NCBI RefSeq assembly: GCF_030013595.1
Contig: NZ_CP122768.1
Source of the DNA: Escherichia coli
GTDB lineage: Bacteria > Pseudomonadota > Gammaproteobacteria > Enterobacterales > Enterobacteriaceae
Length of the DNA stretch: 64,000 nt
Strand: one strand, 5' to 3'
Made by a program: the position numbers and the translations under genes. This document shows, one piece after another, positions 9,562-48,745 of this stretch. A model generated the notes under the pieces. The model searched no databases and was not told where the DNA came from. It saw nothing but the letters and a program-made list of their open reading frames with translations. How positions within the stretch are numbered: the stretch's first letter is position 1; each line of letters opens with the position of its first letter.

Positions 9562-9578
9562 AAAACACCCCAGCGAAG

Positions 9579-10968: not shown

Positions 10969-12375
10969 TTACAGCCGTTCTTGAATAAGTTTGCCTAATT
11001 GTTTAACCGCCTGTTCTTCACGTTCTCCCCACTGCCACGCGGTATTAAAACGGAAAAAACGTGACCAGTTTTCACCGGTAGAAAACATTTTACCCGGCGC
11101 AATACTGATATGATGCGCCAGTGCCGCCAGGCTTAATTCGCCCGCATCTAACGGTTCGGGAAGCTCCAGCCAGAGAAAATAACCGCTGTCATTATGATGA
11201 ATTTTCACTTCCGCAGGCAGATAACGCAGCAGTGCTTGCCAGGCACGTTGTTTACGTTCCGCAAGCTGGCGACGCAGGCGACGAAGATGGGCGTCGTATC
11301 GGCGCGTGGAAAGGTAATCCACCAGAGCAAGCTGCATCGGTGAGCTGGTGGAAAGCGTACTCATCAACTGCAAGCGTTGAATTTTACGTGCATGTTTTCC
11401 GGCGGCGACCCAACCAATACGAAAACCAGGCACCAGACATTTCGAAAACGAAGAGCAATGCAAAACACCATCGTGGTGATCCCACGCTTTCGCAGGCAGC
11501 GGTTTTTCCCGTCCAAAATAAAGTTCGCTGTAAACGTCATCTTCAATCAGCGTTACGTTGTACTGATTGAGCAACGCTACCAGCCGCGCTTTTTTCTGCG
11601 GCGTTAAGGTAAATCCGAGTGGATTCTGGCTATTAGTCATCAGCCAGCACGCTTTCACTGGATACTCCTGCAACGCCAGTTCCAGCGCCTTGAGATCAAT
11701 CCCTTCTTTAACGTCCGTCGCCACCGATAACGCCTTCAGCCGTAACCGCTCCAGCGCCTGCAACGCGCCGTAGAAACAAGGATTCTCTACTATCACCCAA
11801 TCGCCCGGTTCAGTGACCGCTTGTAAACTGAGGTTTAATGCCTCTAACGCCCCGGCGGTAATGACAATTTCATCAGGAGAAATAGTGATGCCCTGTAAGG
11901 CATAGCGACGAGCAATAGCCTGACGCAGTTCTGCGTTTCCTGGCGGTAAGTTTTCAATCACGCTCATCGCCGTGGCGGTTTTGCTTACCTGCGCCAGCGA
12001 GCGGTTTAGTTGTTGGAGGGGGAAAAGTCGCGGGTCGGGAAAGGCCGAGGCAAACGGAACTACCGACGGATCGCGACTGGCCTGCAACATATCAAAAATA
12101 TAGGTGTTGATATCGACTGCTTCATCTCGAGTGACAGGAATGACTGGCGCTTTCGGCATTTTTATTGCCTGTGGCGCAACGTAATAACCCGACTGCGGTC
12201 GAGCGATAATATGTCCCTGACTTTCGAGCAACTGATAGGCATGGCTGACAGTCATAAAGCTCATGCCAGAAAGCGCCACCTGGTCACGCAACGAAGGCAA
12301 ACGATCGCCAGGTTGCCAGATACCCGACGCAATCTGCTCGCGTAATTGTTCTGCAAGCTGCTGGTATTTTTTCAT
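10969..12375 (-). CDS. ydcR: MocR/GntR-family regulator with fused aminotransferase domain YdcR
   Basis: 468 aa; N-terminal wHTH plus PLP-aminotransferase-like domain. Confidence 0.85.
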   Translation of the reverse strand: MKKYQQLAEQLREQIASGIWQPGDRLPSLRDQVALSGMSFMTVSHAYQLLESQGHIIARPQSGYYVAPQAIKMPKAPVIPVTRDEAVDINTYIFDMLQASRDPSVVPFASAFPDPRLFPLQQLNRSLAQVSKTATAMSVIENLPPGNAELRQAIARRYALQGITISPDEIVITAGALEALNLSLQAVTEPGDWVIVENPCFYGALQALERLRLKALSVATDVKEGIDLKALELALQEYPVKACWLMTNSQNPLGFTLTPQKKARLVALLNQYNVTLIEDDVYSELYFGREKPLPAKAWDHHDGVLHCSSFSKCLVPGFRIGWVAAGKHARKIQRLQLMSTLSTSSPMQLALVDYLSTRRYDAHLRRLRRQLAERKQRAWQALLRYLPAEVKIHHNDSGYFLWLELPEPLDAGELSLAALAHHISIAPGKMFSTGENWSRFFRFNTAWQWGEREEQAVKQLGKLIQERL

Positions 12376-12453
12376 TATCGAATCGTAATTATGTGCAGAT
12401 GATTCGGCAGTCTATATCAGTTGTTAAAAATGACAACTTTTCGTTAACTGTAA

Positions 12454-12567
<114 letters not shown>

Positions 12568-12609
12568 CCCTAATATAATGCCCCCACAATAACACGAGGG
12601 GGTACAACA

Positions 12610-12996
12610 ATGTTCAATATCATGATTCGTAAATTTGGCGAGATGACTTTCGAGAAAGCTGGTGTTGCTCGTACCGAAGAAGAAGCAATGGCCTTAGTTC
12701 TGGTAGCACTGAGATCATCACCTGAGATTATCGACGCTGAATATGTAGCTGCTGAGGGTGAGATTAAAGAGATTAAAGCGGTGGCTAAGGAATTAGGTGT
12801 TAAAGGTTTCCGTAAGCTGAGATTGAATCGTGAGACTTATGTAATTGGACAGCAAGGACAATACCTAGATGAGAATACCGTGATTGTTCTACTGAATAAG
12901 ATTACCCGCTACGGTTGGAAGATTGAGCAATATAAAACGTGTTTCGAATTATACGAAAAAGGTTTGCTGGATACTCTGACCATCGTTCGCGCTTAA
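12610..12996 (+). CDS. hypothetical protein (prophage attL-proximal)
   Basis: 128 aa ORF with RBS GAGGGGG upstream; no recognisable family. Confidence 0.5.
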   Translation: MFNIMIRKFGEMTFEKAGVARTEEEAMALVLVALRSSPEIIDAEYVAAEGEIKEIKAVAKELGVKGFRKLRLNRETYVIGQQGQYLDENTVIVLLNKITRYGWKIEQYKTCFELYEKGLLDTLTIVRA

Positions 12997-13304
12997 TTAA
13001 TTTCTAATTTGGTGGGTGTAATTCCCACCGCTTTTTAAACTGGAGAATCAAACATGTTAGCTTTTATCTCATTCGTGGGAGGTAGTCTCACAACTATGAT
13101 TAGTCTTTCTTATCTTGTCGTTAGTATGGGGTGAGCAATGAAACAATTTCATGATGGCATTTCATCTAAGACATTCAAGAAAGAATATAGCGGATTGTGT
13201 ATTAACTGGATTGATTTGATTGGTGCGGTTGTGTTTGGTCTGGTAATTAGCATCAATTTTTAACGATATAAATATATCGTAATTCATTCAAAGAGGATTC
13301 AATT

Positions 13305-13646
13305 ATGAAAAAGACTATCTACGCAATTATTGTTTCTGTGTGTGTTGGTGGCATCGGTGGATTTGTTTGTGGGTATGACTATTCCGATACTCAACATCAA
13401 GAGACTATCCGGTCAAATAAGGCCGAGATTAAGGATCTGAATCAGGAGATTAGCCAGTTAGAAAATGCTCTCTCACTCAAAGACAGTGAATATAGCGAGG
13501 TTTATGCAGATAAACAAAAATATTGGAAAGAGAAAGATAATCTCGTTGTTTACGGGATGAAATTGTGTAAGAGCATGAAGGACGAGCGCAGTTGTTTAAT
13601 GGAACTTGCCCTTAAAGGTAACGTGACCATCGACTTCAAAGACTAA
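13305..13646 (+). CDS. membrane-anchored coiled-coil protein (moron-like)
   Basis: 113 aa; N-terminal hydrophobic anchor IYAIIVSVCVGGIGGFVCG then coiled-coil; RBS AAGAGGATTC. Confidence 0.5.
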   Translation: MKKTIYAIIVSVCVGGIGGFVCGYDYSDTQHQETIRSNKAEIKDLNQEISQLENALSLKDSEYSEVYADKQKYWKEKDNLVVYGMKLCKSMKDERSCLMELALKGNVTIDFKD

Positions 13647-13675
13647 TTAATTCAAATAACAAAGAGGATTCTATT

Positions 13676-13921
13676 ATGAAAAAGATTATCGCTGGTATCG
13701 TTCTTGCTCTGGGTTTGGTTGGTGCTGCAAATGCCGAACAATATGTACAGGGTGATAGTGTCAAGCGTGCTGCCGTTGCACCTTCTTTAAATCAACTGTG
13801 TACTGAATTAGCACAGGTTGCCGGAGTTGGTGACGATGACGACTTTATTACTGCGTGTGTGTGGAGTCATATCGAGGATATTAATAAACGTGATGCAAAA
13901 CTAACTGGAAAGAAATATTAA
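13676..13921 (+). CDS. small secreted protein (moron-like)
   Basis: 81 aa; Sec signal peptide MKKIIAGIVLALGLVGAANA with AxA cleavage site; two Cys in mature part; RBS nearly identical to that of the preceding gene. Confidence 0.55.
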   Translation: MKKIIAGIVLALGLVGAANAEQYVQGDSVKRAAVAPSLNQLCTELAQVAGVGDDDDFITACVWSHIEDINKRDAKLTGKKY

Positions 13922-13971
13922 TGACTTACTAACCAATGCCCCTATCGTTATAATACACGGTAGGGGCGTTT

Positions 13972-15666
13972 TTGTTTGGAAATGGTATGAAAACTAAACT
14001 ATATTCGTATATTCGCTTCTCGTCTATGCGTCAGAATGATGGTTCGAGTTATGAACGGCAAATCAGGATGGCGAGAGAGGTTGCGGCAAAGTATGACCTT
14101 GAACTGGTAAATGATTATCAGGATCTGGGTGTATCTGCGTTTAAGGGTGCTAACTCTAAAACAGGGGCGCTATCTCGTTTCCTTGATGCAATTGGTAGAT
14201 CCGTTCCTGTTGGTAGCTGGCTATTCATTGAAAACTTGGACCGCTTATCCCGTGCCGATATTGTCAGTGCGCAGGAGTTATTCCTTTCAATCATCCGTAG
14301 GGGAATAACCATTGTTACTGGCATGGATAACAAGATCTACTCGCTGGATACTGTTACCGCTAATCCGATGGACCTGATGTTCTCCATCCTTCTATTCATC
14401 CGTGGTAATGAGGAAAGTCAGACTAAGCGCAATCGTACTAACTCAAGCGCATTGATTAAGATTAAAGCTCATCAAGAAAATCCCCAGAATCCGGCAGTGG
14501 CAATCGAGGAAGTTGGAAAGAATATGTGGTGGACTGATACCACATCTGGTTATGTGCTTCCTCATCCGGTCTTCTTCCCTATTGTTCAGGAAGTTGTGGA
14601 ATTACGCAGGAATGGACGGTCAACCGCCGAGATACTGGATCACCTTAACGCGACATACACACCACCACCAGCCGCAAGTCACAAGAGGCATTCAAACTGG
14701 TCACGGGCAATGATTGAAAGGTTGTTCCATACCCGCGCTTTGATTGGTATCAAGGAAATCTCTGTAGATGGCGTTAAGTATGAGTTAAAGGATTATTATC
14801 CTCGTGTGCTAGATGACGCTGAGTTTTATCACCTTAAGAAAAGCATTGGTGTTAGAGCATGTAACTATGGAGACAAGGAAGAAGTTAAACCGATCCCCCT
14901 GCTTAGTGGTGTTAATCTGCTGAAATGTGATCATTGCGGTTCCGCTATGGTTAAGGTGAAAGGAACAAACAGACGGCCTAACCAATATCGTTATTCATGC
15001 GATGCAATGCGCTCTAGTCGTATTGAATGTGTGCATACAAACTGGAGTTTTCGCGGCGACCAATTAGAGAAAGCTGTATTGCAATTGCTGGCTGATAAAA
15101 TCTGGATTGCTGAAGATAAGGCTAATCCGGTTCCGGCTTTGAAAGTACAGATTGATGAAATATCACGCAAGATTGATAACCTGATTGCCCTTTCTGCTAT
15201 GACAGGAGCAACGAAGGAGCTAGCCGATCAGATTACTACCCTCAATAGCGAGCGTGAAACACTCTACAATCAGATCAAGATGGCAGAAGAGGAAATGTAT
15301 TCTGTGGACTCTCAAGGCTGGGAGAAGCTCGCAGAATTTGATTTAGAAGATGTTTACAACGAGGATCGCATTAAGGTCCGGTTTAAGATTAAGCAAGCTC
15401 TAAAACGGATCGGGTGTAGCAGGATTGACAAGTACAAAAACTTGTTTGTACTGGAATACATCGATGGCAAGACCCAGAGAGTTGTAATAGAAAATTCAAG
15501 AGGACCGAGGAAAGGCCGGATCTTCGTTGATTTGAAGACTATCAATGATAGGCAGATTCTGGAGAGTAACGGGCTTGTTCTGCATCCATGTTTAGACATG
15601 CTGACAGATAAGAACTGGAAACCAGAAGAGGAAATACCAGGTCCATTACAGGAATTTGGAATTTAA
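13972..15666 (+). CDS. large serine recombinase (putative prophage integrase)
   Basis: 564 aa; resolvase-type catalytic motif YIRFSSMRQ at N-terminus, Cys-rich zinc-ribbon segment CDHCGS...YRYSCDAMRSSRIEC and coiled-coil, typical of large serine integrases. Confidence 0.8.
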   Translation: MFGNGMKTKLYSYIRFSSMRQNDGSSYERQIRMAREVAAKYDLELVNDYQDLGVSAFKGANSKTGALSRFLDAIGRSVPVGSWLFIENLDRLSRADIVSAQELFLSIIRRGITIVTGMDNKIYSLDTVTANPMDLMFSILLFIRGNEESQTKRNRTNSSALIKIKAHQENPQNPAVAIEEVGKNMWWTDTTSGYVLPHPVFFPIVQEVVELRRNGRSTAEILDHLNATYTPPPAASHKRHSNWSRAMIERLFHTRALIGIKEISVDGVKYELKDYYPRVLDDAEFYHLKKSIGVRACNYGDKEEVKPIPLLSGVNLLKCDHCGSAMVKVKGTNRRPNQYRYSCDAMRSSRIECVHTNWSFRGDQLEKAVLQLLADKIWIAEDKANPVPALKVQIDEISRKIDNLIALSAMTGATKELADQITTLNSERETLYNQIKMAEEEMYSVDSQGWEKLAEFDLEDVYNEDRIKVRFKIKQALKRIGCSRIDKYKNLFVLEYIDGKTQRVVIENSRGPRKGRIFVDLKTINDRQILESNGLVLHPCLDMLTDKNWKPEEEIPGPLQEFGI

Positions 15667-15942
15667 GCGGCCTAAATCGACGTATAACGAGCTAAAACAG
15701 TTAAGGGGTACAGATGTACCCCTTTTTAATTTAATTGCGTTAGGCAGCGTAAGCAAGTTTCATAGTAGTTTCCTCTAAAATAATAAGTTCACTACTATTT
15801 ATCAGAGAAAATTGTCTTACTATTGCATTCTCTATCTGGATGTGGGTATAGGCGGGATTGAATACGGCAAAACTGAAACATTCCACTACTGCAATAAATC
15901 ACTAAACAATATAAAGAATATTGCAAGTGTGGAGTGGAACTA

Positions 15943-16254
15943 ATGCAAGATATTAAAATTCATTTTCAAGATTACAGTTTCGTTAAGGTTGATTGCTCTC
16001 CTTCTATCGGAATGGAATTAAGAGATTATTTCTCGTTTGAGGTTGAAGGGGCTAGGTTTAGCCCCCGTTACAAGTATTCTGGCTGGGATGGACGAATAAG
16101 ACTGTTTACGCATGAAAACACCCTACCAATTGGACTATTAAAAACGTTGGGTGTCTTCGTTAAAAATATGGGCTATTCAGTCTGGATTGACCCCAGATTG
16201 CTTGAGAAGGAAGATGTAACCAAAGACGCGATTAATGAATGGATTGATTCCTTA
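15943..16254 (+). pseudogene. UvsW-like SF2 helicase, N-terminal fragment (interrupted by IS1)
   Basis: MQDIKIHFQDYSFVKVDC... runs in frame into the IS1 left end; the frame continues on the other side of IS1. Confidence 0.7.
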
Positions 16255-16309
16255 GGTGATGCTGCCAACTTACTGATTTAGTGTATGATGGTGTTTTTGA
16301 GGTGCTCCA

Positions 16310-16585
16310 GTGGCTTCTGTTTCTATCAGCTGTCCCTCCTGTTCAGCTACTGACGGGGTGGTGCGTAACGGCAAAAGCACCGCCGGACATCAGCGCTATC
16401 TCTGCTCTCACTGCCGTAAAACATGGCAACTACAGTTCACTTACGCCGCCTCTCAGCCCGGTACGCACCAGAAAATCATTGATATGGCCATGAATGGCGT
16501 CGGATGTCGCGCCAGTGCACGCATTATTGGCGTTGGCCTCAACACGATTTTCCGCCACTTAAAAAACTCAGGCCGCAGTCGGTAA
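16310..16585 (+). CDS. insA: IS1 InsA
   Basis: 91 aa [43 protein letters not shown]..., zinc finger plus HTH. Confidence 0.9.
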
Positions 16586-17007
16586 CCTCGCGCATACAAC
16601 CGGGCAGTGATGTGATTGTCTGCGCTGAAATGGACGAACAGTGGGGCTACGTCGGTGCTAAATCACGTCAGCGCTGGCTGTTTTACGCGTATGACAGGAT
16701 GCGGAGGACGGTTGTGGCGCACGTCTTCGGTGAACGCACTCTGGCCACACTGGAGCGTCTTCTGAGCCTGCTGTCGGCCTTTGAGGTCGTGGTATGGATG
16801 ACGGATGGCTGGCCGCTGTATGAATCACGCCTGAAGGGAAAGCTGCACGTTATCAGCAAGCGTTATACTCAGCGCATTGAGCGGCATAACCTGAATCTGA
16901 GACAACATCTGGCAAGGCTGGGACGGAAGTCACTGTCGTTCTCAAAATCGGTGGAGCTGCATGACAAGGTCATCGGGCATTATCTGAACATAAAACACTA
17001 TCAGTAA
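16504..17007 (+). CDS. insB: IS1 InsB reading frame (expressed as InsAB' by -1 frameshift)
   Basis: 167 aa frame overlapping insA 3' end; DDE transposase core. Confidence 0.85.
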
Positions 17008-17022: not shown

Positions 17023-18210
17023 GATTCCTTAGAAGTGTATTCCGGTAGCAATAAAATCAATCCTTATTGGTATCAAAGGGAGGCAGTCTTTCAGGGTATC
17101 CACAATCGCCGTAGAATGCTGGTTCTTCCTACCAGTGCCGGAAAGTCATTGATTGCTTGTATGCTGTCTCGTTGGTACTTAGAGAACTACACCGGAAAAG
17201 TGTTAATCATTGTTCCGACTACATCGCTAGTGGTTCAAATGAGGGATGATTTCATCGATTATAGGCTATTCCCTTATGAAGCAATTCATACAATGATGAG
17301 TGGTAGCGGGAAACATCCGGGAGACAGGTTAATCACGGTTAGTACCTGGCAATCAGCTTGCAAGATGCCTCCTGAATGGTTCCGACAATATGGAATGTTG
17401 ATAGTTGATGAATCGCATAAGGCTAGTGCCAAAAATATTACCAATATCATCAATGGAATGAATCATTGCCAATTTAAGATCGGCATGACTGGTTCCCCGA
17501 AAGAATCAAAGTGCCATTTAATGCAGTATGTCGGGCTTTTCGGTGATATTTCTAAGATCGTGAGTATTGACCGCCTGATGGAAGAAGGGCAGGTGACAAA
17601 ACTGAAAATTAACTGTCTTTTCCTTCGTTATACAGATGAGGAATGTAGCGCGGTTAAGGGGCGAGAATATGCGGAAGAGATCAAGTATATTACGTCTAAC
17701 CCACGACGAAATAAGTTTGCTTGTAATTTGGCGCTAAAACTAGCTAAGAAGGGCGAAAACGTATTCCTGATGTTCCGCAATACTAAGCACGGAAAACTTA
17801 TGTATGATGCGTTACAGAAGGTACACGACAAGGTTTATTATATTGACGGTGGAGTTAAGACAGAAGAACGTGATGAATTTAAGAAAATGGCGGAGGGTGA
17901 CACCGGGATCATTTGCGTTGCATCCTATGGTGTGTTCTCTACTGGTGTTTCAATTAAGAATTTGCATCATGTTATTTTCGGTCATCCAGTGAAGGAATCA
18001 ACTATCGTTCGTCAGAGTATCGGTCGTGCATTGCGTAAACATGGTTCTAAGGATATTGCAACGGTCTGGGATCTTATAGATCATCTGTGTATATTCGGTC
18101 GTAACGGAAAAGTCAAGCATAAAAATTATGCGGTAAAACATGCACTTGAGAGAATCCGCTATTATCTAACCGACAAGTTCAGCTATGCAACTAAAACAAT
18201 TGCTATATAA
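17023..18210 (+). pseudogene. UvsW-like SF2 helicase, C-terminal fragment
   Basis: Walker A LVLPTSAGKSL, DExH box IVDESHKA, helicase C-terminal motifs VASYGVFSTGVSIKNLHHVIFG and GRALRKHGSKDIATVWDL; in frame with the N-fragment across the IS1 target duplication. Confidence 0.7.
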
Positions 18211-18241: not shown

Positions 18242-18595
18242 TTATCCATTCCATCGTGATTTTTTCGATCTGGAATCGATATGCGTAAAGGTTTTATATT
18301 TGCCTAAGCCGTATTGAGTAGGATATTTCCCATCAAGATAAGCATGGACAATATCAGGGGAGACACCCTTGATCACAATGTCAGCCGCACGGCCTCGAAC
18401 GTGATAGCTGTTGGTTGCACCGCCTACATTCTTGTTATGAGTCGGGCAACGGTTGCCACTGTTAATAATCACTGGTTTACCGAAGTGCTCTCGTACATCC
18501 TCAAGAATTACCAGTAATTCAGCGTCGATTGTATCATAATCACATTTTCCGCATTTACATTTAAATTCCTTGCGAGAAAAATGCTTACTTAACAT
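18242..18595 (-). CDS. endolysin, peptidase M15 family (L-alanyl-D-glutamate peptidase type)
   Basis: 117 aa; zinc-binding signature SYHVRGRAADI ... FTHID typical of VanY/M15 phage endolysins. Confidence 0.75.
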   Translation of the reverse strand: MLSKHFSRKEFKCKCGKCDYDTIDAELLVILEDVREHFGKPVIINSGNRCPTHNKNVGGATNSYHVRGRAADIVIKGVSPDIVHAYLDGKYPTQYGLGKYKTFTHIDSRSKKSRWNG

Positions 18596-19675: not shown

Positions 19676-19846
19676 TTAGCCCCCTAATAACGAAAAGACC
19701 CCCGCCAGTGTCCTTAGCAATTGTTCATCCACGGTCATAGCCGGGAGTTCAAGCCCAAAGGACGTTAGCAGAGGTCTAATTGCTACGTTATAAGTGAGGG
19801 CGACAATCAAGAGATAACCAAAATATTTCTTAAGTTTATTCTTCAT
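19676..19846 (-). CDS. small transmembrane protein (holin/spanin-like candidate)
   Basis: ORF 19676..19918 trimmed to MKNKLKK...; hydrophobic segment YFGYLLIVALTYNVAI; start codon choice uncertain. Confidence 0.35.
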   Translation of the reverse strand: MKNKLKKYFGYLLIVALTYNVAIRPLLTSFGLELPAMTVDEQLLRTLAGVFSLLGG

Positions 19847-19865
19847 ATATTCACCCCTTTTATTA

Positions 19866-20144
19866 TTATTTTTGTCTGAGTAAATCGATAACTTGGTCAA
19901 ATTTAGCGTCCATCGCAACCACTTTCTTTTCTATACCGTGAAGGGTTTGTTCCATGCGATAAACTCTCTCGGCGATCTGGTCGTGGTTATTCTGCATTGT
20001 TTCAAACTTCTGATTAAACAATGCATCATTGGACTCTAATTTCGACAATCTATTTTCTGTGGCTAATTGATTTCGGTGAAGTCTCCATAATCCACCACAA
20101 ATTAAGGCGATAACACCGATACCGCCATATATAATTTCAGTCAT
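19866..20144 (-). CDS. membrane-anchored coiled-coil protein (holin or i-spanin candidate)
   Basis: 92 aa; N-terminal TM IIYGGIGVIALICGGLW followed by coiled-coil. Confidence 0.4.
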   Translation of the reverse strand: MTEIIYGGIGVIALICGGLWRLHRNQLATENRLSKLESNDALFNQKFETMQNNHDQIAERVYRMEQTLHGIEKKVVAMDAKFDQVIDLLRQK

Positions 20145-34440: not shown

Positions 34441-34911
34441 TTAAAAACGCGCTAGATAAGAAAATTTAAGGCTAAGTGTCCCAACGATACCCCCATCACT
34501 AGAATCATCGTCATAATCGGTATTAGAAGCTACTGGAGTGATATCTGAAATTGAGAAGCCCAAATCTTTAAAACGTGGGTTATCCGGCTGAATCTGGATT
34601 ATCTGGCAAATACCCTCATGAATTTTGGTTTCATGAATCTGAGAATACAATTGCATTTCGATAACGCATTCAGCTTGCATTGCATTACCGCCACGGACCC
34701 TATTGTAAGTCTCATTCATTCCGGTGATCCAACAAACCACGTCATCACTAAAGCCTTGCTGAGTTTGTTCTACGTTTAAAGCCAGACCTAAATCTTGTTC
34801 GATAATATCCTGCAAGGCGCGTTTGATTTTCAGTCTAGGCATATTATTAACGGTAGCGAGCATGTGTACCCCCTGCCAGAGTGATAAAGCAATCAGTTGT
34901 ATTGTCACCAT
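34441..34911 (-). CDS. head-tail joining protein candidate
   Basis: 156 aa ORF in head-to-tail junction region; true start may be the internal Met. Confidence 0.35.
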   Translation of the reverse strand: MVTIQLIALSLWQGVHMLATVNNMPRLKIKRALQDIIEQDLGLALNVEQTQQGFSDDVVCWITGMNETYNRVRGGNAMQAECVIEMQLYSQIHETKIHEGICQIIQIQPDNPRFKDLGFSISDITPVASNTDYDDDSSDGGIVGTLSLKFSYLARF

Positions 34912-37338: not shown

Positions 37339-38850
37339 TTAGGGATCGGCTGGGGAATTTTTTTCTTCACCCTCGCCATCAACGATAATATTTAGTGCGC
37401 TCTTTTCGGCTTGAATCTCTGAGAATACTTTTTCAGGATCATCACCACGTTCAAGAATAACGGCAGTACGTGATTTAAGTCCTTTATCAATTAAAGCAAT
37501 CTCGGCGCTTACGTCTTTAAATGGATCGACGGATTCAAAACGAGGACGAATAATAGTAGTGTTGTCGATAATATGCGGAATTGCAGTAATACGAATCGGA
37601 ACAATACCACGCGCGGAATAATGGCGTAGATATGCTTCGAAAATTGGCAATACCACTGTTTCAATCAATTTGTTTTGCAGTGCTTTAACTCGTGTGCGCT
37701 GGGTTAATTCACCGAAACGTGCGGCTGAGTAGTTGATCTGGCTAGTATCACCAGTCAAGCCCTGTTTAAACACGCCTAAGCCCATTGATACGCTAGTAAA
37801 CATCGCATCATTGAAGCTGTTAAAGTCATCACCGCTTTGCGTCGCCTGGATGCTCTTGATCGTTGCCCCTTCCGGCAATTCCTGAATAGTACCCGGTGCA
37901 AAATCCTGTACTACTTCCGGCGCTTGATATTGTTCATCCTCTTCACCAGTATCAAAATCGTCACCAGAATCTTTCGGACGTTCGATAAAGCCCATAGAAC
38001 TAGCCGCAATACGTTTCTGGACGATCGCAGTTTCGCGGAATGCGTCTTGATGTGCGATATCCTTAATCACTGGCAGGAAATCAGTCACACCACGCAGGGA
38101 TTCAGACGCAAGTGGTTGATAATAATGGAATACTTGCGAAGCATCGACGCGATAGTTATCACCTGTGTAAGTCTGAGTCAGTAGGTTGATTTTACGAAAC
38201 CAATATGCAACAGGGCGCATTGTTTCTACGTCATACTCGATCCCCTGATAGATAGCACGTTCTTTGCTTATTTCACGGTTTAGCGACCAGTCGCACTTAT
38301 CAGCAGACAGGATGGAAACATTTAACTCATTGTTTTCTTTGGTTAAAACGATGAAGCACTCACCACCCATAACGCGCTCACGTTCAGCCATTACCAGCAG
38401 TTCACGGAAGTTAAAGCGACCGTTACGAGAGAAGCGTTTAGCGTTCTGCGCCCACTTCCAGAAAGCATTCTCGATCTGCTTATTCAGTGCGCTATCAAGT
38501 TTGCCATTTGATTTAACGATTGACGGCTTCGGATCTAGGCCAGTACCTACCACCATATCGGTGATGTATTGCGTGTAGCGACTGCCAACGGAAGTGTTTA
38601 AGGCCAGAGTACGACCCTGATCATAAAGGCGCTCACCGTTCGATTTGAGAGCCTTATTGAAGGTTCCTGTAATGGTGTCTTGTTGAAGTGATCCATCAAT
38701 ACGATCACCAACCAGTCCTAAACTACGAGTCGCCAGAGATTTCTGGTATCTTTCTATAGATTTGTCGATGAAAATTTTTGGTTGTTGCTGGCGGTGATTA
38801 GTTTTAACTGGAGTTTCTACCGCCTTTTTGCGTCGAAAAAGATTAAACAT
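37339..38850 (-). CDS. portal protein
   Basis: 503 aa, size and position between terminase and capsid. Confidence 0.65.
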   Translation of the reverse strand: MFNLFRRKKAVETPVKTNHRQQQPKIFIDKSIERYQKSLATRSLGLVGDRIDGSLQQDTITGTFNKALKSNGERLYDQGRTLALNTSVGSRYTQYITDMVVGTGLDPKPSIVKSNGKLDSALNKQIENAFWKWAQNAKRFSRNGRFNFRELLVMAERERVMGGECFIVLTKENNELNVSILSADKCDWSLNREISKERAIYQGIEYDVETMRPVAYWFRKINLLTQTYTGDNYRVDASQVFHYYQPLASESLRGVTDFLPVIKDIAHQDAFRETAIVQKRIAASSMGFIERPKDSGDDFDTGEEDEQYQAPEVVQDFAPGTIQELPEGATIKSIQATQSGDDFNSFNDAMFTSVSMGLGVFKQGLTGDTSQINYSAARFGELTQRTRVKALQNKLIETVVLPIFEAYLRHYSARGIVPIRITAIPHIIDNTTIIRPRFESVDPFKDVSAEIALIDKGLKSRTAVILERGDDPEKVFSEIQAEKSALNIIVDGEGEEKNSPADP

Positions 38851-38860: not shown

Positions 38861-39355
38861 TTATCGCGTAAGACGTAATTTGATATTTTTAATCGGACTA
38901 ATTCCCTGTTTACGTCGTTCGGCTTGAATTAATTTAGATAACTGACGTTCATAATCAGTCTTCAATTGCTGGAGAACACCCAATGACTCATAGGCGAAAG
39001 TATTCCCTTTCACGGTCATTTGAGATAATGCGGCTTCGTCCCCAGATAGCCTGGCGAAAATAACTTGCTCGATTACAGAAATCGTTTCGCGCAGATGTTC
39101 TTTTTTGGATTGTTTGGCGAATACTGGCAAAACAGTTAATTCCTGCATTGATACCAGTTCTTCATCAAGAGTAATAACAATGGTCATCTTCCCTTCTGGA
39201 AAGTCTAACGTTTTAATCTCGTGATTTTCCGGTGCATCATCGACCTGATAGACAATGCCTTTGCTATTACCTACCTGAATTGTTACACCCTCTTCATTCG
39301 CAAGCGTGACTTTTTCGCCTTTACGAATTACTAAGGGAATTAGTTCTAAACTCAT
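38861..39355 (-). CDS. hypothetical protein between terminase and portal
   Basis: 164 aa ORF. Confidence 0.45.
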   Translation of the reverse strand: MSLELIPLVIRKGEKVTLANEEGVTIQVGNSKGIVYQVDDAPENHEIKTLDFPEGKMTIVITLDEELVSMQELTVLPVFAKQSKKEHLRETISVIEQVIFARLSGDEAALSQMTVKGNTFAYESLGVLQQLKTDYERQLSKLIQAERRKQGISPIKNIKLRLTR

Positions 39356-39427: not shown

Positions 39428-41332
39428 TTAGAACGATGTTACCCAGCTACGGCCTCTATTTGGGCGTCTGACGATGTTTTGACGTTGTGGTCGTGTGATT
39501 GGCTTAGTTTCTTCGATTTGCTCGTCAGATTGCGATTTAGGAGCTTCTACAGGTTCTTCTGGTTCACGGTTCAAACTATCTTTGATGGCTTCGAGTTTTT
39601 CCCATGACATTTTATTGAGTACATGACGAGAAGCAGCATAGGAATAAGCCAGGCAGTCCAACGCTTCGTTTCGTGTTTGTCCAACTTTTACCCAACGTGT
39701 GGTATTACCCTGCCGTTTCAACTGTTCAGAAAGCAATTGCTCGCAATAGTCATCAGGAACGTCACCAATCTGGAAGACAGTGTGAGGATCGCCATCTCTC
39801 AAGTTCCGGTTAATCATTTCACGGATCATCGTTTTAAGGTTGTTTACGCCCAGAATTTTAAGGGTAAAACCACCCGTTCTTGTGTCTTTTACCGGAAGGA
39901 TTGGTGCATCAACATTGCTTGCGCCTTTAATGGCGGTTAGATTTTGCCACCGACTACAGAATCGATAGATCACGTTTGTAGCTCGTCCGTTCGATGAGTC
40001 CACGAAAGCAGATAACATCGGGATTCGTTCACCGGATCGGGTATAGAATTTAGCTTTCAGGAAGTTGTAAAGCTGGTTATATGCTGGTGATTCGTGGCGT
40101 TCGCAGTTCACATCATAGAATGATCGGTGATCAACTACGCATAGCCCTTTACGAGAAATACCCAGCAAGGTAGATTCCAGACGGTCTTTTTGCTGGTCAA
40201 CTCCACCTACCAGAGCCAGTACATCATCAGGAATATTGTCTAGGCTAATATCAGTTTTCAGCGTTTCTAATTCGTCGGCTGTGCGGTCTTCGTTAAGATC
40301 ATCGAAGGTTTCACCGAGGACTGTATTGTAGAACGTTGCCAGGGACATATTCGCGTAGCTATCAGCAAAGTCCACCACACACGCACGGATAGAACTAAAC
40401 GGAGACATAAGGCGGTTAGCATGAAAACCGATTACTTCCGCGTTTGGTTCGGTGGCGACCCATTCTCCCTGTCCAACAGCACGTAGGCGATCACCCTCGG
40501 TCCAATCGGTTTCACATTCAGGGCAACGGTAAACGGCTGTATCTGGGTTGGGTAATGATTTACCGTTAATCGTATGCCAATCGAAATGTACGTTACTCCA
40601 TTCCATTACGTGCTTGTGTCCGCAATGCTGGCAAACGACATGATATTTTCTCTTATCCGAGAGTTCCCATTGTTGGTTAATCGCCCCATCACGAGCGGTT
40701 GGAGTGGAAGCAATTACGATCCTTGCATCTTCCCCGAAAGTGGTTGCGCGTTGTTCCGCTAGTTGGATCGGGTTCCCTTCGTCTGACTCATCAGCCGCAT
40801 CAACTTCATCAAGAATAATCAAAGGGAGTGTTTTACCGCGAAGATGTGACGGACTATTCAACGACATGAAATACATAAACGATCCGTTACGAAGCTGAAT
40901 AATCGATGAGTTGTTAACGGCATTGCGATCTGATTTGTCGGTGATCATCGCCTTTAATTCTGGTGTTGCCTCTAATACTGGCTTCACCTTACCAGCGATC
41001 CAAGAATTTAGTTCTCTAACGTTACTTTGCAACACCCCAATATTAGTAGGGTTACTCGCGATCCGATGGAAGATAATTCCGTTAAGAATCATGGTCTTAC
41101 CCAACTGTGCCGAACATTTAAACACAATTTTTCTACGGTCTTCGGTGATCGCGTCCATCATTCCACGTTGGAAGGGATGCAATTTAATTAGCGATCCGGC
41201 TTTAACACCATCGGTTGCAACTACATTAGCCTCTACCCATTCGCTAGGTTTCATCGTTTTAGGTGGGCGAATTGCCGCAGAGATATTTTTAAGAATCTTT
41301 TTTAATTTTGCCTTGTTCGAAATCAGTTTCAT
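39428..41332 (-). CDS. terminase large subunit (GpA-like)
   Basis: 634 aa; Walker A-like FKCSAQLGKTMILNG, acidic DE-rich nuclease region at C-terminus. Confidence 0.8.
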   Translation of the reverse strand: MKLISNKAKLKKILKNISAAIRPPKTMKPSEWVEANVVATDGVKAGSLIKLHPFQRGMMDAITEDRRKIVFKCSAQLGKTMILNGIIFHRIASNPTNIGVLQSNVRELNSWIAGKVKPVLEATPELKAMITDKSDRNAVNNSSIIQLRNGSFMYFMSLNSPSHLRGKTLPLIILDEVDAADESDEGNPIQLAEQRATTFGEDARIVIASTPTARDGAINQQWELSDKRKYHVVCQHCGHKHVMEWSNVHFDWHTINGKSLPNPDTAVYRCPECETDWTEGDRLRAVGQGEWVATEPNAEVIGFHANRLMSPFSSIRACVVDFADSYANMSLATFYNTVLGETFDDLNEDRTADELETLKTDISLDNIPDDVLALVGGVDQQKDRLESTLLGISRKGLCVVDHRSFYDVNCERHESPAYNQLYNFLKAKFYTRSGERIPMLSAFVDSSNGRATNVIYRFCSRWQNLTAIKGASNVDAPILPVKDTRTGGFTLKILGVNNLKTMIREMINRNLRDGDPHTVFQIGDVPDDYCEQLLSEQLKRQGNTTRWVKVGQTRNEALDCLAYSYAASRHVLNKMSWEKLEAIKDSLNREPEEPVEAPKSQSDEQIEETKPITRPQRQNIVRRPNRGRSWVTSF

Positions 41333-41498
41333 GTAATTACCCTCATTACGAAATATGAAGGTATTTATTAAATTGTTGATATTTTGATAAATATGGGTAT
41401 TAAGGCAGAGTTCTTTATGTCGGTTGACGATGGAGAACTTTTTCCGATAAAATGTAAGTCCTCTAAATAAAGGTGAACATTCACTTTAATTTGGAGAA

Positions 41499-41732
41499 AT
41501 GACTATGACTACTAAAGCTACTCGCGGTCGCCCTGCCCGTTATACTCGTGAACAGATGGCTGATATTGCCTACGCTTACTATACAGCGGATCGCGGGAAG
41601 GAAGCGAAAGAACAGATTCTTAGTGAACATGGGATTTCAGTAGCCCAATTCTATAAGAATATGAAGAAGTTAGACATTAAATTCTATGTTCAGATCGATG
41701 ACGGTCAGATCGTAGAAGCAACAGGTTTTTGA
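41499..41732 (+). CDS. small DNA-binding protein (paralog of 45446..45628)
   Basis: 77 aa; RGRPARYTRE ... pattern shared with MARPVKFTRE... of the paralog; own terminator downstream. Confidence 0.5.
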   Translation: MTMTTKATRGRPARYTREQMADIAYAYYTADRGKEAKEQILSEHGISVAQFYKNMKKLDIKFYVQIDDGQIVEATGF

Positions 41733-41765: not shown

Positions 41766-41844
41766 TATCTAAGTTATTGATTTTCTCGAACTTCACAATT
41801 TGTGGGAGTCGGGAAACATCCACAATTTGTGGGAGTTGGATAGT

Positions 41845-41876: not shown

Positions 41877-42428
41877 TCAGATTCCGAAGATGTCACATAG
41901 GTCGGCTGTGTGGCGTTCTTGTTTTGAATAGTAAATCCGTTCAGCTTCATATAACGTGATAGAATCATCATTAACGACGGTTTCAAACTCCCCTTCTATT
42001 ACCCTTTCTGTGTGCGCTTTACTGCGTAATTCGGCCTCTTCCATGCGATATAAGCCAATACAGATACTACCATATACACCATATTTTTTCTCGTCGAGAT
42101 GGCGACGACCTTTGCGTTGTTCGAACGGAAGATCGTAAGCGGTTATCTTTTTGCGGCGAACTCGATCATATCCACTCTCTTTGGCATCAATCATCATACT
42201 AATCAACATCCCACATTTAACAAGGGATTCAAGGCACTGACGAATAGAATTAGTTCTTGATTGTTTTAATTCTGGGTTAGGATCGTAATATGGATTATCT
42301 ATCCATGATTCATGAATAAGGAAATGTACGTCATCAGCCGTTAAAGGCCAACCACCAACACTTTCAACATCGGTCTTAGTACAATCAAACAGATCCAGAA
42401 TGAATTTCTTTTTGTGCGTCATTTTCAT
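41877..42428 (-). CDS. hypothetical protein
   Basis: 183 aa ORF. Confidence 0.45.
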   Translation of the reverse strand: MKMTHKKKFILDLFDCTKTDVESVGGWPLTADDVHFLIHESWIDNPYYDPNPELKQSRTNSIRQCLESLVKCGMLISMMIDAKESGYDRVRRKKITAYDLPFEQRKGRRHLDEKKYGVYGSICIGLYRMEEAELRSKAHTERVIEGEFETVVNDDSITLYEAERIYYSKQERHTADLCDIFGI

Positions 42429-44094: not shown

Positions 44095-44743
44095 TCTAAT
44101 ATTATTTATAAAGAGAAAATTCTTGTTATTATGAAAGGAGTGATCTGGTAGAGTCCAAAACTGGTCTGTACTTGAAAGGTGATTGGATTCAGTCGGGCAA
44201 AGCCCTCCTTCATGTTTTGATTAAATCATCATCAAAACGAAGAAGTATCTTTAGAATATAAGATCTTTCTTTTGGAGAAATAATAATCAGGAAGCAATTT
44301 GGCAACCGAAGGTTGCAATCCCGAAGGGATAACCAATACCTTTCTAGAAAGTGATTGTTACTCACTTCGTTCGTTTACTAGAATCAGTTATCATCTGGTA
44401 TTAAATCCCTTTCTAAGAAAATCCTTTCAAAAGTGATTCTCGATGCCACGCAGTGGCGTCGCAGACGTTTGGGAGTGAGCGAAGCGAGCGAGCAAACTAG
44501 TTAATTCCTTCTAAGACCATCTAGTATCATCTAGTTTAAATTAGTTGTTACTAGAAGCAATTGGTTGGCGCTTCGCGCAGTCGGGCTAAAGCCCTCCTAA
44601 TTATCTTTTTGGTTATTTGTTGTTTTTAGTTTTACACATGAGCGTAGCGAATGTGTTATATAATATCTATGCACGCCCAATCCCCCGCTTTTTCCCCTCA
44701 CTAAGTTAATGTTTTATAAAGAGTTTTTCTCACCAATCCTTTT

Positions 44744-44931
44744 CGGGGGCAAATTTCAGGGGCAAAAATTAGATTTTCAGGGGCAAAAATAGTGGGTTTC
44801 AGGGGCAAAAATGAGGGGCAAAATCACTGTTTCCCAGAATTTCAGGGGCAAAAATAGTGGGTTTCAGGGGCAAAAATGGGATGTGGAATCTAGGGGATTT
44901 TGGTTCAGGGGCAAAATTCAGGGGCAATTTT
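44744..44931. repeat. iteron-like direct-repeat array, about 9 copies of TTCAGGGGCAAAAAT at mostly 21-22 bp spacing
   Basis: copies at 44757, 44777, 44799, 44842, 44864, 44905, 44918 plus degenerate copies at 44745 and 44813; two 22-bp units AGTGGGTTTCAGGGGCAAAAAT are identical. Confidence 0.65.
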
Positions 44932-44968
44932 CATAGTGTAGGGCTAGTGTAGGTTTGAAAATCCTTTG

Positions 44969-44997: not shown

Positions 44998-45445
44998 TGA
45001 AAATTCGAGATAAATATGTTATAATATTTGTATTGAAAGTGAAAATTTACCGATTTTCCTTCCTATTGTTATCACCGTGTTAAATTGTTATATGTCTGTG
45101 AAGATTTGGATCTGAGAGAAAATCTTGTAACAAATCTTTACAATTCATAGCTCAATTAATGCTCACCGCTTTAGCAAAAAGTGCTATGCCTTTTTCTAAA
45201 TTGATTGAATATACATCAATTTGGTTAAATCGTGTTCTTCGCTTTAGCAATTCGTGCTGTGGTTTAACACATTTAACACGTCTGATAACATCTGAATAAC
45301 ATTTTAACATATCTCTGTTATAAATACATATATAAGAGATAAATGTGAGGGGTTGAAAAATAAAATACAATCCCATATAAATAATAGTGAGCGGTTAACG
45401 CTCTTTTTTAAGAAATCATTAATCCACATTGTAGGAGGATTCGAG

Positions 45446-45628
45446 ATGGCACGACCTGTTAAGTTCACTCGCGAAATCATCTTAGAAATGGCTAAACGCT
45501 ACTTTGAGTTAACGCCGGGTGTGAGAATTGAAGAGTGGTTTAAAAATGAGGGCATCGATAAATCAACCTTTCATAAACTGCTAAAACGATATGACATTAA
45601 AGTGAAGATTGAAGCTACCGTTTGGTAA
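45446..45628 (+). CDS. small DNA-binding protein (paralog of 41499..41732)
   Basis: ORF 45353..45628 trimmed to the ATG with TAGGAGG RBS (MARPVKFTREIIL...); 60 aa. Confidence 0.5.
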   Translation: MARPVKFTREIILEMAKRYFELTPGVRIEEWFKNEGIDKSTFHKLLKRYDIKVKIEATVW

Positions 45629-45742: not shown

Positions 45743-46684
45743 ATGTTATTTTCCGCTAACTTTTTCACTAACGAAGTAACCAACGCTAAAGCAGTTATCA
45801 AATTTGGCACCGAAGCAAACAAGAAGATTCAGCCGAAAGTTGTTGCTCATGTTTCCTTTGCGCAGCAGAAATCCGCTTTCGCTGGCTTTAAAGCACATCG
45901 TGAAGCACTGATCGCGGCTGGCTTTGGTGTTGACGGTAAACTGCCTAACGGCATTCGTAAAGCAATCGACCGCGTTAAACCAGTTAAAGACGTTGCAGTA
46001 GACCACATCGTTACTTTTACCGTTAAGAACTCTTCTGAACTGTTCCACCTGGTTATTGCTGGTGATACTGCTATCGTTTCCGCTCCTAACATGGATTTTC
46101 AGGATACCGCTGATTGCCAGATCACCTTCGGTCGTCGTAAAGAAGTTACCGGAAAAGCTAAACTGAACTTCACTAAATCCGGCAATCCTTACTTTGCTGT
46201 ATTCTTTAACAGCCACGCTACCGAAAAAGAAGTTGTAGAACTGGTTGCTTATGAAGGTGAAGAGAAAGAACGTATTGAATCTTGCGAAGCATTTCTGGAA
46301 CTGGAAGCACAGGTGAATGCTGTTTCTCCGGTTGTTGAAGATCGCTTTGCTGCACTGGAAGCACAGATCGCAGAACTGAAAGCTGCACTGGAAGAAAAAG
46401 ACCAGATTATCGAAGCACAGAAAGCTGAGATTGAAGAACTGAAAGCTAAAGAAGTTGCTCCGGTGGCAGTAGTTGAAAACGCGGCTGATGAGGCCGCAAA
46501 TGATGAAGTAGAAGTGAAAATCGATGTGATGCGTGATCCGATGGCTGCACTGCAATTACTTCGTTCTTTTAAGGGCAAATCTCATTTTTCTAGTGATGTA
46601 GAAGATGAGGAAGAAGAACAGAAACGCAATGCTGCAATGCTTCATGATGAAATGTACGGTACTAACTTTTCTTACTGCCAATAA
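45743..46684 (+). CDS. hypothetical protein with central coiled-coil and acidic C-terminus (moron-like)
   Basis: 313 aa; AGGAG RBS; codon usage (CTG, CGT, GGT, AAA, GAA, AAC, TTC) resembles highly expressed E. coli genes and differs from the rest of the prophage. Confidence 0.6.
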   Translation: MLFSANFFTNEVTNAKAVIKFGTEANKKIQPKVVAHVSFAQQKSAFAGFKAHREALIAAGFGVDGKLPNGIRKAIDRVKPVKDVAVDHIVTFTVKNSSELFHLVIAGDTAIVSAPNMDFQDTADCQITFGRRKEVTGKAKLNFTKSGNPYFAVFFNSHATEKEVVELVAYEGEEKERIESCEAFLELEAQVNAVSPVVEDRFAALEAQIAELKAALEEKDQIIEAQKAEIEELKAKEVAPVAVVENAADEAANDEVEVKIDVMRDPMAALQLLRSFKGKSHFSSDVEDEEEEQKRNAAMLHDEMYGTNFSYCQ

Positions 46685-46712
46685 AAAAAGGGACTCCGAA
46701 GAGTCCCTAGTA
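46684..46712 (-). terminator. rho-independent terminator (reads as terminator on minus strand)
   Basis: GGGACTC-CGAA-GAGTCCC with A-run on the plus strand (T-run on minus). Confidence 0.5.
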
Positions 46713-46968
46713 AGTTTAGGTTAGGTTTGCACAACAAAGATGAGGTTATAATGAATATAATGCTACATTATTCTTTAAAGCCAGAAAAATAACCGCCCCC
46801 TTCGGGGCGGGAGGATTAATACTCAATCTATACTTGTTATGTTTTTATGTTGTATAGTCACTGACTATGAAAACACTGTACTGAATGTGTTTTATGGCTT
46901 TTAATCGGGAACTCTCTTTCGAAAATTCCCTGTTAAAACCACATAAGGAGAAAAGGCAGATTACAATA

Positions 46969-47253
46969 TTATTTAGTCTGTTTGAAAACGAACGTTAAAA
47001 ATTCGATTAAGCAATATACCCAAAGTACGGTCAGCATCAAATGCATAGCAATAGTTGGATGGAAGTTAAAAAGTGTCATACTAACTAGGCCAACAATATA
47101 AGAAATTCCTTCGACAATTAACGCAAGGCTAGCAAATGCAACAAACGCACCTAAGAATAATTCGCCTCGTTCTTTCGGTTCGGTTCCGAGTTTATAAGCA
47201 GAGATAGCAGCCAGAATAGTAATGATGACAGCATAGGTAATAAAAGTAGCCAT
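46969..47253 (-). CDS. small inner-membrane protein (2-3 TM)
   Basis: 94 aa, almost entirely hydrophobic. Confidence 0.5.
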   Translation of the reverse strand: MATFITYAVIITILAAISAYKLGTEPKERGELFLGAFVAFASLALIVEGISYIVGLVSMTLFNFHPTIAMHLMLTVLWVYCLIEFLTFVFKQTK

Positions 47254-47345
47254 AGTTTTATATCCTCTTAAAAGTTAAGCGGGGGATGTTCTCCCCCGTA
47301 GACGTTGACCATCAACATCTTTCATACATTTATTTATAACGCGTT

Positions 47346-47903
47346 TTAAGACACATCAAATTCATCGTCTTCTTCTGGTTCTTGTTCTTCCGGTTCATCC
47401 ATTAATGGTAATTCTTCTTCCTCGTCTTCTCCCAAATCTGCATTTTCGAACAAGTCCCCTACTTCATTTAAACGACGCTCGATGATCTCCCTTAGCTTAT
47501 TCTTTAATGTTTTCTGGTCATTGGCAGATTCGAGAATTTCTAGGGCATCGATCGTACAAATCTGCAAAATAGTCTGCTTCACTTTCCCGCAATATTCCGC
47601 TAGTTGCTGTTCTACATAACCGACAGGAATCAGGAGGTTCATTTTTTCCTGATTCTCTCGTTCGGCTGCATCTGCCATTGCTCTTTCTCTGCGGAGACGT
47701 TCTTGATCAATCGCTTCTTTGATTGAAGTTTGTTTAAGTGGGTTAATTACGTTCTTTAGCACCCAATCGCAACCTTCCTTTGCCGGAACACGCCTCTTAT
47801 TGGTATTGTAAGGTAGTCCCCTTTCTAACCATCGCTTACCGCCACCATTCAATGTATAGCCATATAAACGGGAAATTTCTGTAAGGGTTAATTCTTCTTT
47901 CAT
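47346..47903 (-). CDS. wHTH DNA-binding protein, Nu1-like (terminase small subunit candidate or regulator)
   Basis: 185 aa; N-terminal LTEISRLYGYTLNGGGKRWLERGLPY resembles the recalled lambda Nu1 LADIFGASIRTIQNWQEQGMP...GGGKG region; acidic C-terminal tail. Confidence 0.4.
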   Translation of the reverse strand: MKEELTLTEISRLYGYTLNGGGKRWLERGLPYNTNKRRVPAKEGCDWVLKNVINPLKQTSIKEAIDQERLRRERAMADAAERENQEKMNLLIPVGYVEQQLAEYCGKVKQTILQICTIDALEILESANDQKTLKNKLREIIERRLNEVGDLFENADLGEDEEEELPLMDEPEEQEPEEDDEFDVS

Positions 47904-48394
47904 TGGTTATCCTCCATTAAATTTGCGTAATTTTATTTATTGGTTTTACGCAAAATCTAAGCGCCTAAATCGCATTCTAACGAAGGGAAAGATCCAGTAA
48001 TGGTAAGGGCTAGGAAGTGGGTTAATAGTCGCGTAGCGACCGCGCTAGGACTGCACTGATCACGTTTTAAAATCTCACACGCACATCAAAAACCGGGGTG
48101 CCGAAAACTCGCTTTATCTGACCCCGATCCAGAACCTAAATCATTTGTCAAGTCTTTCCGATTCAGTAAAGGGGAACATGCATCTAAGCTAGAGAAGCTC
48201 ATAAAGACTAAGTATGAATGCGGTGTTGTTAGTCGGGATGATATGCGAGACGGTTACACTGAAACGCTACCATTTGAAGCATTGCCGGAGATCATCACTA
48301 TCACCAACAAAATGATAAGCGAAAGCATCCTCGTAAGTAATTGATTCCTAAGCCCTGTCCTTGTGATGGGGCTTTTTTATTGGAAAAATTTTAG

Positions 48395-48745
48395 TTATTG
48401 GGGTTTACAACATTTAGGTTTGCCAATTCGTCTGGCTAACTCTTGCTGAGTGATTTCTGACTGTAAAAAAGCATTTAACAGCAATACCTTAGAGGCGACA
48501 CTCAAAGGCACTTCAATAAAGTGATCGTGACTATTTAATGGCGAAGGTAACGGGATAAGCTCGTTATCTTCAAAATAAAAATCAAATGCGGTCAGTAAAG
48601 CATCTTTTGCCGCTTCCATCGCTTCAGCAACTGTTTCGCCCTGGGTCAACGCTTCAGGGATATCCACAAAAGAAACCATATAACCGCCTTCCGGCGCGGG
48701 TGTAAGAGTGACGGGATAACGCATAATTTCGACTGTCTCTCGCAT
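48395..48745 (-). pseudogene. hicB: hicB 5' part (truncated antitoxin, toxin-binding domain retained, DNA-binding domain replaced by 5 phage-derived codons)
   Basis: matches recalled HicB up to ...ARRIGKPK then diverges to CCKPQ* at the attR core. Confidence 0.8.
48413..48421. repeat. attR core (TTTAGGTTT)
   Basis: identical to 12559..12567. Confidence 0.5.

Follow-up and report, generated by a model that had tools for sequence, protein, structure and literature searches.

A probable Nu1-type small terminase gene lying 6 kb from the large subunit gene at the end of an Escherichia coli prophage

Where is the small terminase subunit (TerS) of a phage encoded when no recognisable gene for it stands beside that of the large subunit (TerL)? 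Most phages carry a TerS-TerL cassette (PMC3185647). The question is raised by a prophage of ~35.8 kb integrated in hicB within a 64,000-nt stretch of the E. coli chromosome (contig NZ_CP122768.1, assembly GCF_030013595.1), referred to here at its full length as the window. A preliminary description of the right end of this prophage had pointed to two open reading frames (ORFs), one for a 185-amino-acid (aa) protein with an N-terminal segment resembling lambda Nu1 (47346..47903) and one for a 94-aa membrane protein (46969..47253). It left open whether the terminase subunits are unusually uncoupled in this phage, or whether the 185-aa protein acts as a regulator or, together with its neighbour, makes up a two-gene module. 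Both ORFs were found at those positions, on the minus strand; they are real genes with conservation at the protein level, and the first reading is the one supported. With a probability of about 0.78, the 185-aa ORF (here terS) encodes the TerS of a lambda-like siphophage of the cohesive-end (cos) type, a protein that belongs to the lambda Nu1 family as a divergent member. Most likely, the function is ordinary and the gene order uncommon but conserved within the lineage, and this is not a new kind of system.

The gene terS begins with an ATG at 47903, with GGAGGA, a good Shine-Dalgarno sequence, located 6 nt upstream, and its product combines an N-terminal winged helix-turn-helix (wHTH), long central helices and a long acidic tail ending in EFDVS. 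Over residues 25-169 the protein matched PHROG 57, a family named 'terminase small subunit' (2.7e-11). Seventeen close homologs, 51-90% identical to the query, were combined in a profile (A1), and hhalign of A1 with the single lambda Nu1 sequence gave a probability of 93.3% (E 2.6e-7), pairing residues 4-91 with Nu1 residues 2-108, a span which covers the winged HTH and the next conserved helix. The N-terminal likeness to Nu1 was therefore recovered, and it is part of a longer one. A search of 1.8 billion representative proteins with A1 returned 245 at E<=1e-3, mostly of 155-195 aa and aligned from end to end, and the likeness within the family spans the full length, to about residue 170, well beyond the HTH. 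Weak matches to PF07471 (Phage_Nu1) were found in 10 of the 17 close homologs, and among 60 full-length members of the wider family 30 matched PF07471 (best 6.4e-20) and seven matched DUF1441. Since these relatives match PF07471 while the window protein itself has no Pfam match, the latter is a divergent member of that family, reached transitively. At the level of sequence comparison, the protein is a homolog of Nu1. Database entries for some homologs already carry the name 'terminase small subunit', and in the 15 best-matching RefSeq E. coli records listed both terS and the 94-aa gene are annotated 'hypothetical protein'.

The presumed partner is the gpA-type large terminase gene terL (39428..41332, minus strand), which was identified by PF05876 (1.4e-61), PF20454 (5.4e-46) and PHROG 15 (1.9e-142). 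From the terS stop to the terL start there are 6,014 bp, so that terS neither adjoins nor overlaps terL as it would in a lambda-type late operon, although both are on the same strand. As had been described, the gap holds a control region and plus-strand genes, namely those at 41499-41732, 45353-45628 and 45743-46684, together with a 1.2-kb non-coding iteron region and intervening terminators. Two of these terminator hairpins, at 46810-46793 and 46708-46689 (minus strand; 46689..46810 in the terminator scan), close the unit formed by terS and the 94-aa gene before the convergent gene at 45743-46684; terS is therefore not co-transcribed with terL and belongs to a separate transcription unit. Its start is ~510 bp inside the right attachment core (attR, 48413-48421), which agrees with the right-end location first given for it.

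Two layouts were observed among the relatives. In four distant serine-recombinase prophages (L009, L068, L069 and L070) the homolog of terS occupies the canonical position, where it shares 29-101 nt with the start of a gpA-type terL in a single operon, and terL is followed by a gene for a ~155-aa protein, the portal gene and an S78-capsid fusion, which is the lambda order Nu1-A-W-B. The uncoupled layout was found in L001 (E. coli), L003 (Proteus), L007 and L071, and in 25 IMG/VR loci from isolates and metagenomes. In these ~30 related prophages (E. coli, Salmonella, Proteus) terS and terL share a strand, with terS 5.3-8.5 kb upstream and near the prophage end. Because it recurs across the lineage, the uncoupled layout is a stable, inherited feature of the clade and neither a local accident nor an assembly artefact; the unusual uncoupling that had been suggested is thus borne out. 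Both terS and a gpA-type terL are present in all loci long enough to show the two, and TerS is conserved at the protein level across genera (55% identity to the window in Proteus, 37% in L007). This genomic context is the strongest argument for the TerS identity.

Nothing specific on uncoupled terS and terL was found in the literature. Phage P2 is a cos phage in which the terminase genes M (TerS) and P (TerL) are neither adjacent nor co-transcribed; they lie a few kb apart in divergent operons of the same late morphogenetic cluster, and gpM is not known to belong to the Nu1 family. P2 is thus a precedent for non-adjacent subunit genes, whereas in the window it is early and replication functions that separate the two. 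The prophage offers a clean natural example of lambda-type terminase subunit genes in different units, split by a replication/early region, and comparison of canonical with uncoupled relatives could reveal how stoichiometry and timing persist without translational coupling. It does not overturn the current understanding of packaging. Tools for prophage completeness which expect terS beside terL may score the whole group as lacking a small terminase.

Compared with lambda gpNu1 (PF07471, PDB 1J9I), the 185-aa protein is of similar size (185 vs 181 aa), carries at its N-terminus a winged HTH alignable with Nu1 residues 2-68, and shares the conserved 'ERxRxxRAxADAxE' helix and the long central helices; here too the partner is a TerL of the gpA type, and its gene precedes a W-like gene and a portal gene of the lambda type. 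It differs from gpNu1 in its long acidic tail ending EFDVS and in being below Pfam detection, and the locus differs from that of lambda in that terS is 6 kb from terL, in a separately terminated unit, with the replication/early-control region between them. The four canonical relatives have a homologous TerS (36% identity in L009; profile E 1e-20 to 1e-28 for the four) and the same module of terL, ~155-aa gene, portal and S78-capsid genes, with the TerS C-terminus of L009 being basic and not acidic.

Evidence on how the two subunits might meet was sought in their termini. In lambda, the C-terminus of Nu1 binds the N-terminus of gpA, and the gpA C-terminus binds the portal. The window TerL has a basic N-terminus (MKLISNKAKLKKILKN). 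Two TerL alleles occur among the relatives (~98% and ~59% identical to that of the window), and they assort freely against TerS alleles of 83-99% identity and independently of portal alleles. The first 14 TerL residues (MKLISNKAKLKKIL) are nevertheless invariant in both alleles, with K or R at position 15, and the acidic TerS tail (...EEDDEFDVS) is invariant while the TerL core swaps. By analogy, the invariant TerS tail and TerL N-terminus would fit the lambda interface rule. A mosaic structure was also visible when the window TerL (39428-41332) was compared with that of L001 (12377-14284), identity being ~59% between an identical N-terminus and a nearly identical last ~60 residues, the latter of which would likewise fit the lambda rule.

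The DNA upstream of terS is conserved as well. A non-coding block at 47904..48157 (minus strand) is shared at 82-97% identity by every E. coli relative whose sequence extends over it, and beyond these 250 bp the sequence from 48158 to 48332 is variable. Within the block, an alignment of seven lineages (A4) delimits a terS-linked element of ~80 nt at 48059..48137 (minus strand), consisting of AGGTWCT, ~25 nt, GTTTYSG with a GC-rich core of ~10 nt (48093-48104), a T-rich stretch and TGTGA. It can be recognised across lineages with TerS proteins just 36-55% identical. R1, a sequence model trained on four distant loci and not on the window, found a single site in the 64-kb window, at 48059-48137 (E 1.2e-7), and found the element upstream of terS in L071, which was outside the training set (3.1e-8). 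The distance from AGGTWCT to the terS ATG is 230-238 nt in six lineages and 102 nt in the canonical L009, which also possesses the element. The GC-rich core is ~190-200 nt upstream of the terS start, and lambda cosN is 190 nt upstream of nu1; R1 gave no match to lambda itself (L004), and no similarity to lambda cos was detected. A terminator was considered for the GC-rich core and rejected, as the lineages have no consistent inverted repeat there. The element is put forward tentatively, at slightly less than even odds, as a candidate cos or terminase recognition site; the alternative is a conserved late promoter or regulatory site. Closer to the gene, at 47922-47954, a perfect 9-bp inverted repeat (TTTGCGTAA-N15-TTACGCAAA) is a possible TerS or operator site.

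If these elements are read together, a packaging scheme can be proposed. The N-terminal wHTH of TerS would bind phage DNA near 48059-48137, ~155-235 nt upstream of terS, the central helices would oligomerise, and the acidic tail would recruit TerL through its basic N-terminus; TerL would then nick cos and translocate the DNA. The cos-terS cassette would adjoin the phage attachment site (attP) and would for that reason come to lie at the prophage end after integration, which, if the cos proposal is true, places cos at the extreme end of the integrated prophage. In this lineage the region between terS and terL is the replication/early-control block, in which the iterons and a 313-aa protein are accompanied by HTH paralogs, accessory genes and a Rha/Ant-like protein.

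Several observations weigh against the assignment of the 185-aa protein as TerS and against the cos proposal that goes with it. The sequence itself has no Pfam match at E<=1, so that the Phage_Nu1 threshold is not reached, and no NCBIfam match, and direct BLASTP against Nu1 was marginal (E 0.014). A profile of the 60 wider family members (A2) matched Nu1 DNA-binding-domain structures in the PDB (6hn7_B, 3.9e-15; 1j9i_A, 1.2e-13), but A2 includes true Nu1 proteins and these matches are partly circular; the A1 alignment with Nu1 serves as the independent test. The AlphaFold2 (AF2) model, with a mean predicted local distance difference test score (pLDDT) of 71, starts with a small domain of helices and strands, continues in four long helices and ends in an acidic tail that is disordered; a Foldseek search of this monomer gave nothing significant in the PDB and weak matches in BFVD, where the top matches are unnamed and TerS-named proteins appear at E 0.2-0.35. 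The recognition helix carries an unusual NGGGKRW insertion. In an AF2 model of a TerS-(GGGGS)6-TerL(1-300) fusion with paired alignment rows, the tail was unordered (pLDDT ~32). The R1 element is not detectable in the canonical relatives L068-L070, and scans of viral and metagenome sequences for contigs ending at the proposed cos returned just integrated copies or arbitrary breaks. Finally, the phage collection contains no relative, and the terS region has no DNA or protein match there; the nearest TerL in that collection is 44% identical, in the record of Escherichia phage DCP80 (L002, PQ671644.1).

The alternative that survives best takes the 185-aa protein to be a Nu1/MerR/Xis-like winged-helix regulator, for example the recombination directionality factor that serves the large serine integrase, or else a transcription factor at the attP side, instead of (only) a packaging protein. 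This is considered unlikely. That terS lies ~0.5 kb from attR and belongs to a separate transcription unit would suit such a role, as would the inverted repeat just upstream, the score below the Pfam Nu1 threshold, and the matches to the excisionase-type HTH_17 (PF12728) in a few homologs (5 of 17 at E>=0.0056 and 2 of 60 at 5e-6). Excisionase/MerR-type proteins share with it the small wHTH fold class and the location beside an attachment site, but they are usually single-domain proteins of 60-80 aa, whereas the 185-aa protein adds a TerS-homologous region of ~120 residues. The window protein has no HTH_17 match and its C-terminal two-thirds are TerS-homologous, so that it is not a single-domain wHTH protein. 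The regulator reading is further opposed by a family likeness which is not confined to the HTH, by the four loci where family members occupy the canonical slot overlapping terL, by the co-occurrence of terS with a gpA-type terL, and by the family scans run on the prophage, which found no other TerS candidate. This option of the preliminary description gained no positive evidence, and uncoupled subunits are supported in its place.

A further possibility joins the two functions. The cos-terS cassette would be an autonomous, separately transcribed recognition module beside attP, and TerS would double as a directionality or architectural factor for the serine integrase, thereby coupling excision to packaging. 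This is regarded as quite improbable; if it were true, the shuffling of TerS and TerL alleles around a constant stretch of 14 residues at the TerL N-terminus would represent modular exchange of a recognition cassette.

Comparably improbable is that the 185-aa and 94-aa proteins form an obligate two-gene module, for example a system for exclusion or lysis timing that is anchored in the membrane. The genes are neighbours on one strand with 92 nt between them, and co-transcription is possible through the GC hairpin between them (47280..47298, minus strand), which the terminator scan suggests to be a weak terminator or attenuator. The 94-aa ORF starts at 47253, with AGAGGA, likewise a good Shine-Dalgarno sequence, 8 nt upstream, and hydropathy analysis predicted three transmembrane (TM) segments (residues 1-23, 29-63 and 67-91), in agreement with its earlier description as a small membrane protein. 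No Pfam, PHROG, NCBIfam or PADLOC family was found for it. A small membrane protein of some kind is encoded downstream of terS in almost all relatives, but the 94-aa gene itself is there in just 11 of the 25 IMG/VR relatives, and the protein occurs in just eight clusters, all from E. coli where the source names an organism. Elsewhere the slot is filled by unrelated proteins, namely a pair of small TM proteins, one of 56-59 aa and one of 57 aa, or, in Proteus, a 74-aa protein with two TM segments, and in the canonical relatives terS is followed by terL and not by a membrane protein. It is the slot that is conserved rather than the gene, and the suggested two-gene module is not supported; the 94-aa protein is read here as exchangeable accessory cargo at the prophage end, outside the terminase. 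An exclusion-type function of the membrane proteins in this slot is a guess, and the PADLOC defence-system models returned nothing relevant. A holin was also considered for the 94-aa protein and rejected, given its distance of 28 kb from the M15 endolysin gene (18242-18595), the lack of any holin PHROG or Pfam match and a C-terminus of just KQTK; other holin-like small TM ORFs, which also speak against a lysis-timing module, are already present near the endolysin gene at 19676-20144.

The reading in which the 183-aa ORF upstream of terL (41877..42428, minus strand), or another gene on the terL side, is the true small subunit and the 185-aa gene an inactive relic is already effectively refuted, since that ORF, despite its position, its strand and its TerS-like size, is an ORFan with its own terminator (41872-41845) and just two clusters among 5.8 billion proteins, has no Pfam, PHROG, NCBIfam or PADLOC family and no match in a PDB search, scored 0.2% in hhalign against the Nu1-family profile, and is missing from every related locus examined (including 31 with both terS and terL), while these loci all keep terS, and nearly all terL, and TerS is under clear protein-level conservation across genera. 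The preliminary description had seen no small subunit directly upstream of terL and had named this ORF as the one that might overturn its proposal; it is an accessory gene unrelated to Nu1.

Other genes near terL were considered as TerS candidates and rejected. The 164-aa protein encoded at 38861..39355 (minus strand), in the lambda W position between terL and the portal gene, is a head-tail joining protein (PHROG 5774, 2.6e-09) which is conserved in L001, L003 and L002. The 77-aa protein encoded divergently from terL (41499..41732, plus strand) has a weak HTH_7 match, no PHROG family, no terminase family match and no relation to Nu1; it is conserved in L001, L003 and all IMG/VR relatives, is a paralog of the 91-aa ORF at 45353-45628, and is a probable regulator. 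All of the relatives, at least 25 in number, carry ~550-650 bp of extra DNA between terL and the 77-aa gene (at window ~41395-41403), encoding a protein of ~200 aa that consists of two copies of the 77-aa/91-aa HTH protein domain and is deleted in the window; this 200-aa protein was rejected as TerS because it is an HTH paralog without relation to the Nu1-family profile. A scan of ten ORFs without known function in the structural region gave tail families or none, with no terminase family among them. Directly ahead of terL, a stretch of 72 nt is conserved at 93-100% among the E. coli relatives, including those in which the 59% TerL allele follows. A 19-bp sequence that holds a near-palindrome (CACAATTTGTGGGAGTYGG) occurs twice as a direct repeat at 41794-41839, flanked by the terminator of the 183-aa ORFan on one side and the end of the 77-aa gene on the other; an exact search of nine loci (L001-L009) found no copy.

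Three records show related terminase genes in other settings. In L005 the TerS is 46% identical to that of the window, and no terL is present within ~5 kb downstream, a stretch which reaches a host gene and the contig end; the conserved element is located ~40 nt downstream of terS (10609-10682) and not upstream. These parts would here be arranged in a third way. In L067 a TerS homolog (3549-4067; profile E 2.5e-38) occurs without terL, beside Hcp and a gene with a Tlde1 domain, and the locus looks like a decayed prophage or a type VI secretion system islet. The DCP80 record (141 kb) is classified as T4-like Straboviridae and yet has a lambda-type block of terL, a ~160-aa gene, portal and capsid genes at 1-15611; the record looks chimeric.

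The iteron region between terS and terL contains ~8-10 copies of TTCAGGGGCAAAA at 44742..44940 (plus strand; eight matches vs 1.5 expected). The iterons were considered as TerS or pac sites, and this was rejected because their presence tracks the 313-aa coiled-coil protein encoded at 45743..46684 (plus strand) and is independent of the TerS allele. The CAGGGGCAA iterons are found in the window and in all 14 relatives with the 313-aa protein, whichever TerS allele they carry; in relatives without this protein, AAACCTACACTA repeats replace CAGGGGCAA, and in Proteus the same place holds ~20 CATCCCTAG repeats at an 11-bp phase. No informative Pfam, PHROG or NCBIfam match was obtained for the 313-aa protein. 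The co-variation suggests that the iterons belong to an origin-like module and not to packaging, and they are predicted to be bound by the 313-aa protein rather than by TerS. The 313-aa protein is accordingly a candidate origin-binding or initiator protein, and together the two probably constitute an origin and its initiator, a module whose family is undescribed.

The boundaries of the prophage are defined by a 9-bp attachment core, TTTAGGTTT (unstranded), at 12559-12567 on the left and 48413-48421 on the right (attR), and a complete HicB ORF is regained when the flanks are joined across the cores. The left side carries a large serine recombinase gene (13972-15666, plus strand) and a UvsW-like helicase gene (plus strand) which is split into 15934-16281 and 17035-18210 by IS1 (insA/insB at 16310-17007); given this interruption, the copy of the prophage in the window may be defective, whereas an intact relative is present in E. 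coli Z0117EC0005 (NZ_CP098223). The late block, on the minus strand, consists of the M15 endolysin gene, siphovirus tail genes, a gene for a 668-aa protease/capsid fusion, the lambda B-type portal gene (37339..38850; annotated 'phage portal protein' in L001, with PF05136 on orthologs), the gene of the 164-aa protein and terL. A 91-nt tRNA-Gln predicted by ARAGORN at 34586-34676 (plus strand), within the minus-strand structural ORF 34441-34911, is probably a false positive.

To the right of terL, the order is the 77-aa HTH gene (plus), the 183-aa ORF (minus), the Rha/Ant-like gene, small ORFs, the non-coding iteron region, the 91-aa HTH gene (plus), the 313-aa gene (plus), and the 94-aa gene and terS (both minus), with ~0.5 kb of non-coding DNA between terS and attR. 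Beyond the prophage are hicA and then a U32 peptidase gene. The prophage region was found in 62 of 5,426 complete E. coli genomes (~1%), and related prophages also occur in Salmonella and Proteus. The insertion sites of related prophages are hicB or ycdX, and in the window the integrated prophage leaves hicB truncated beside an intact hicA toxin gene.

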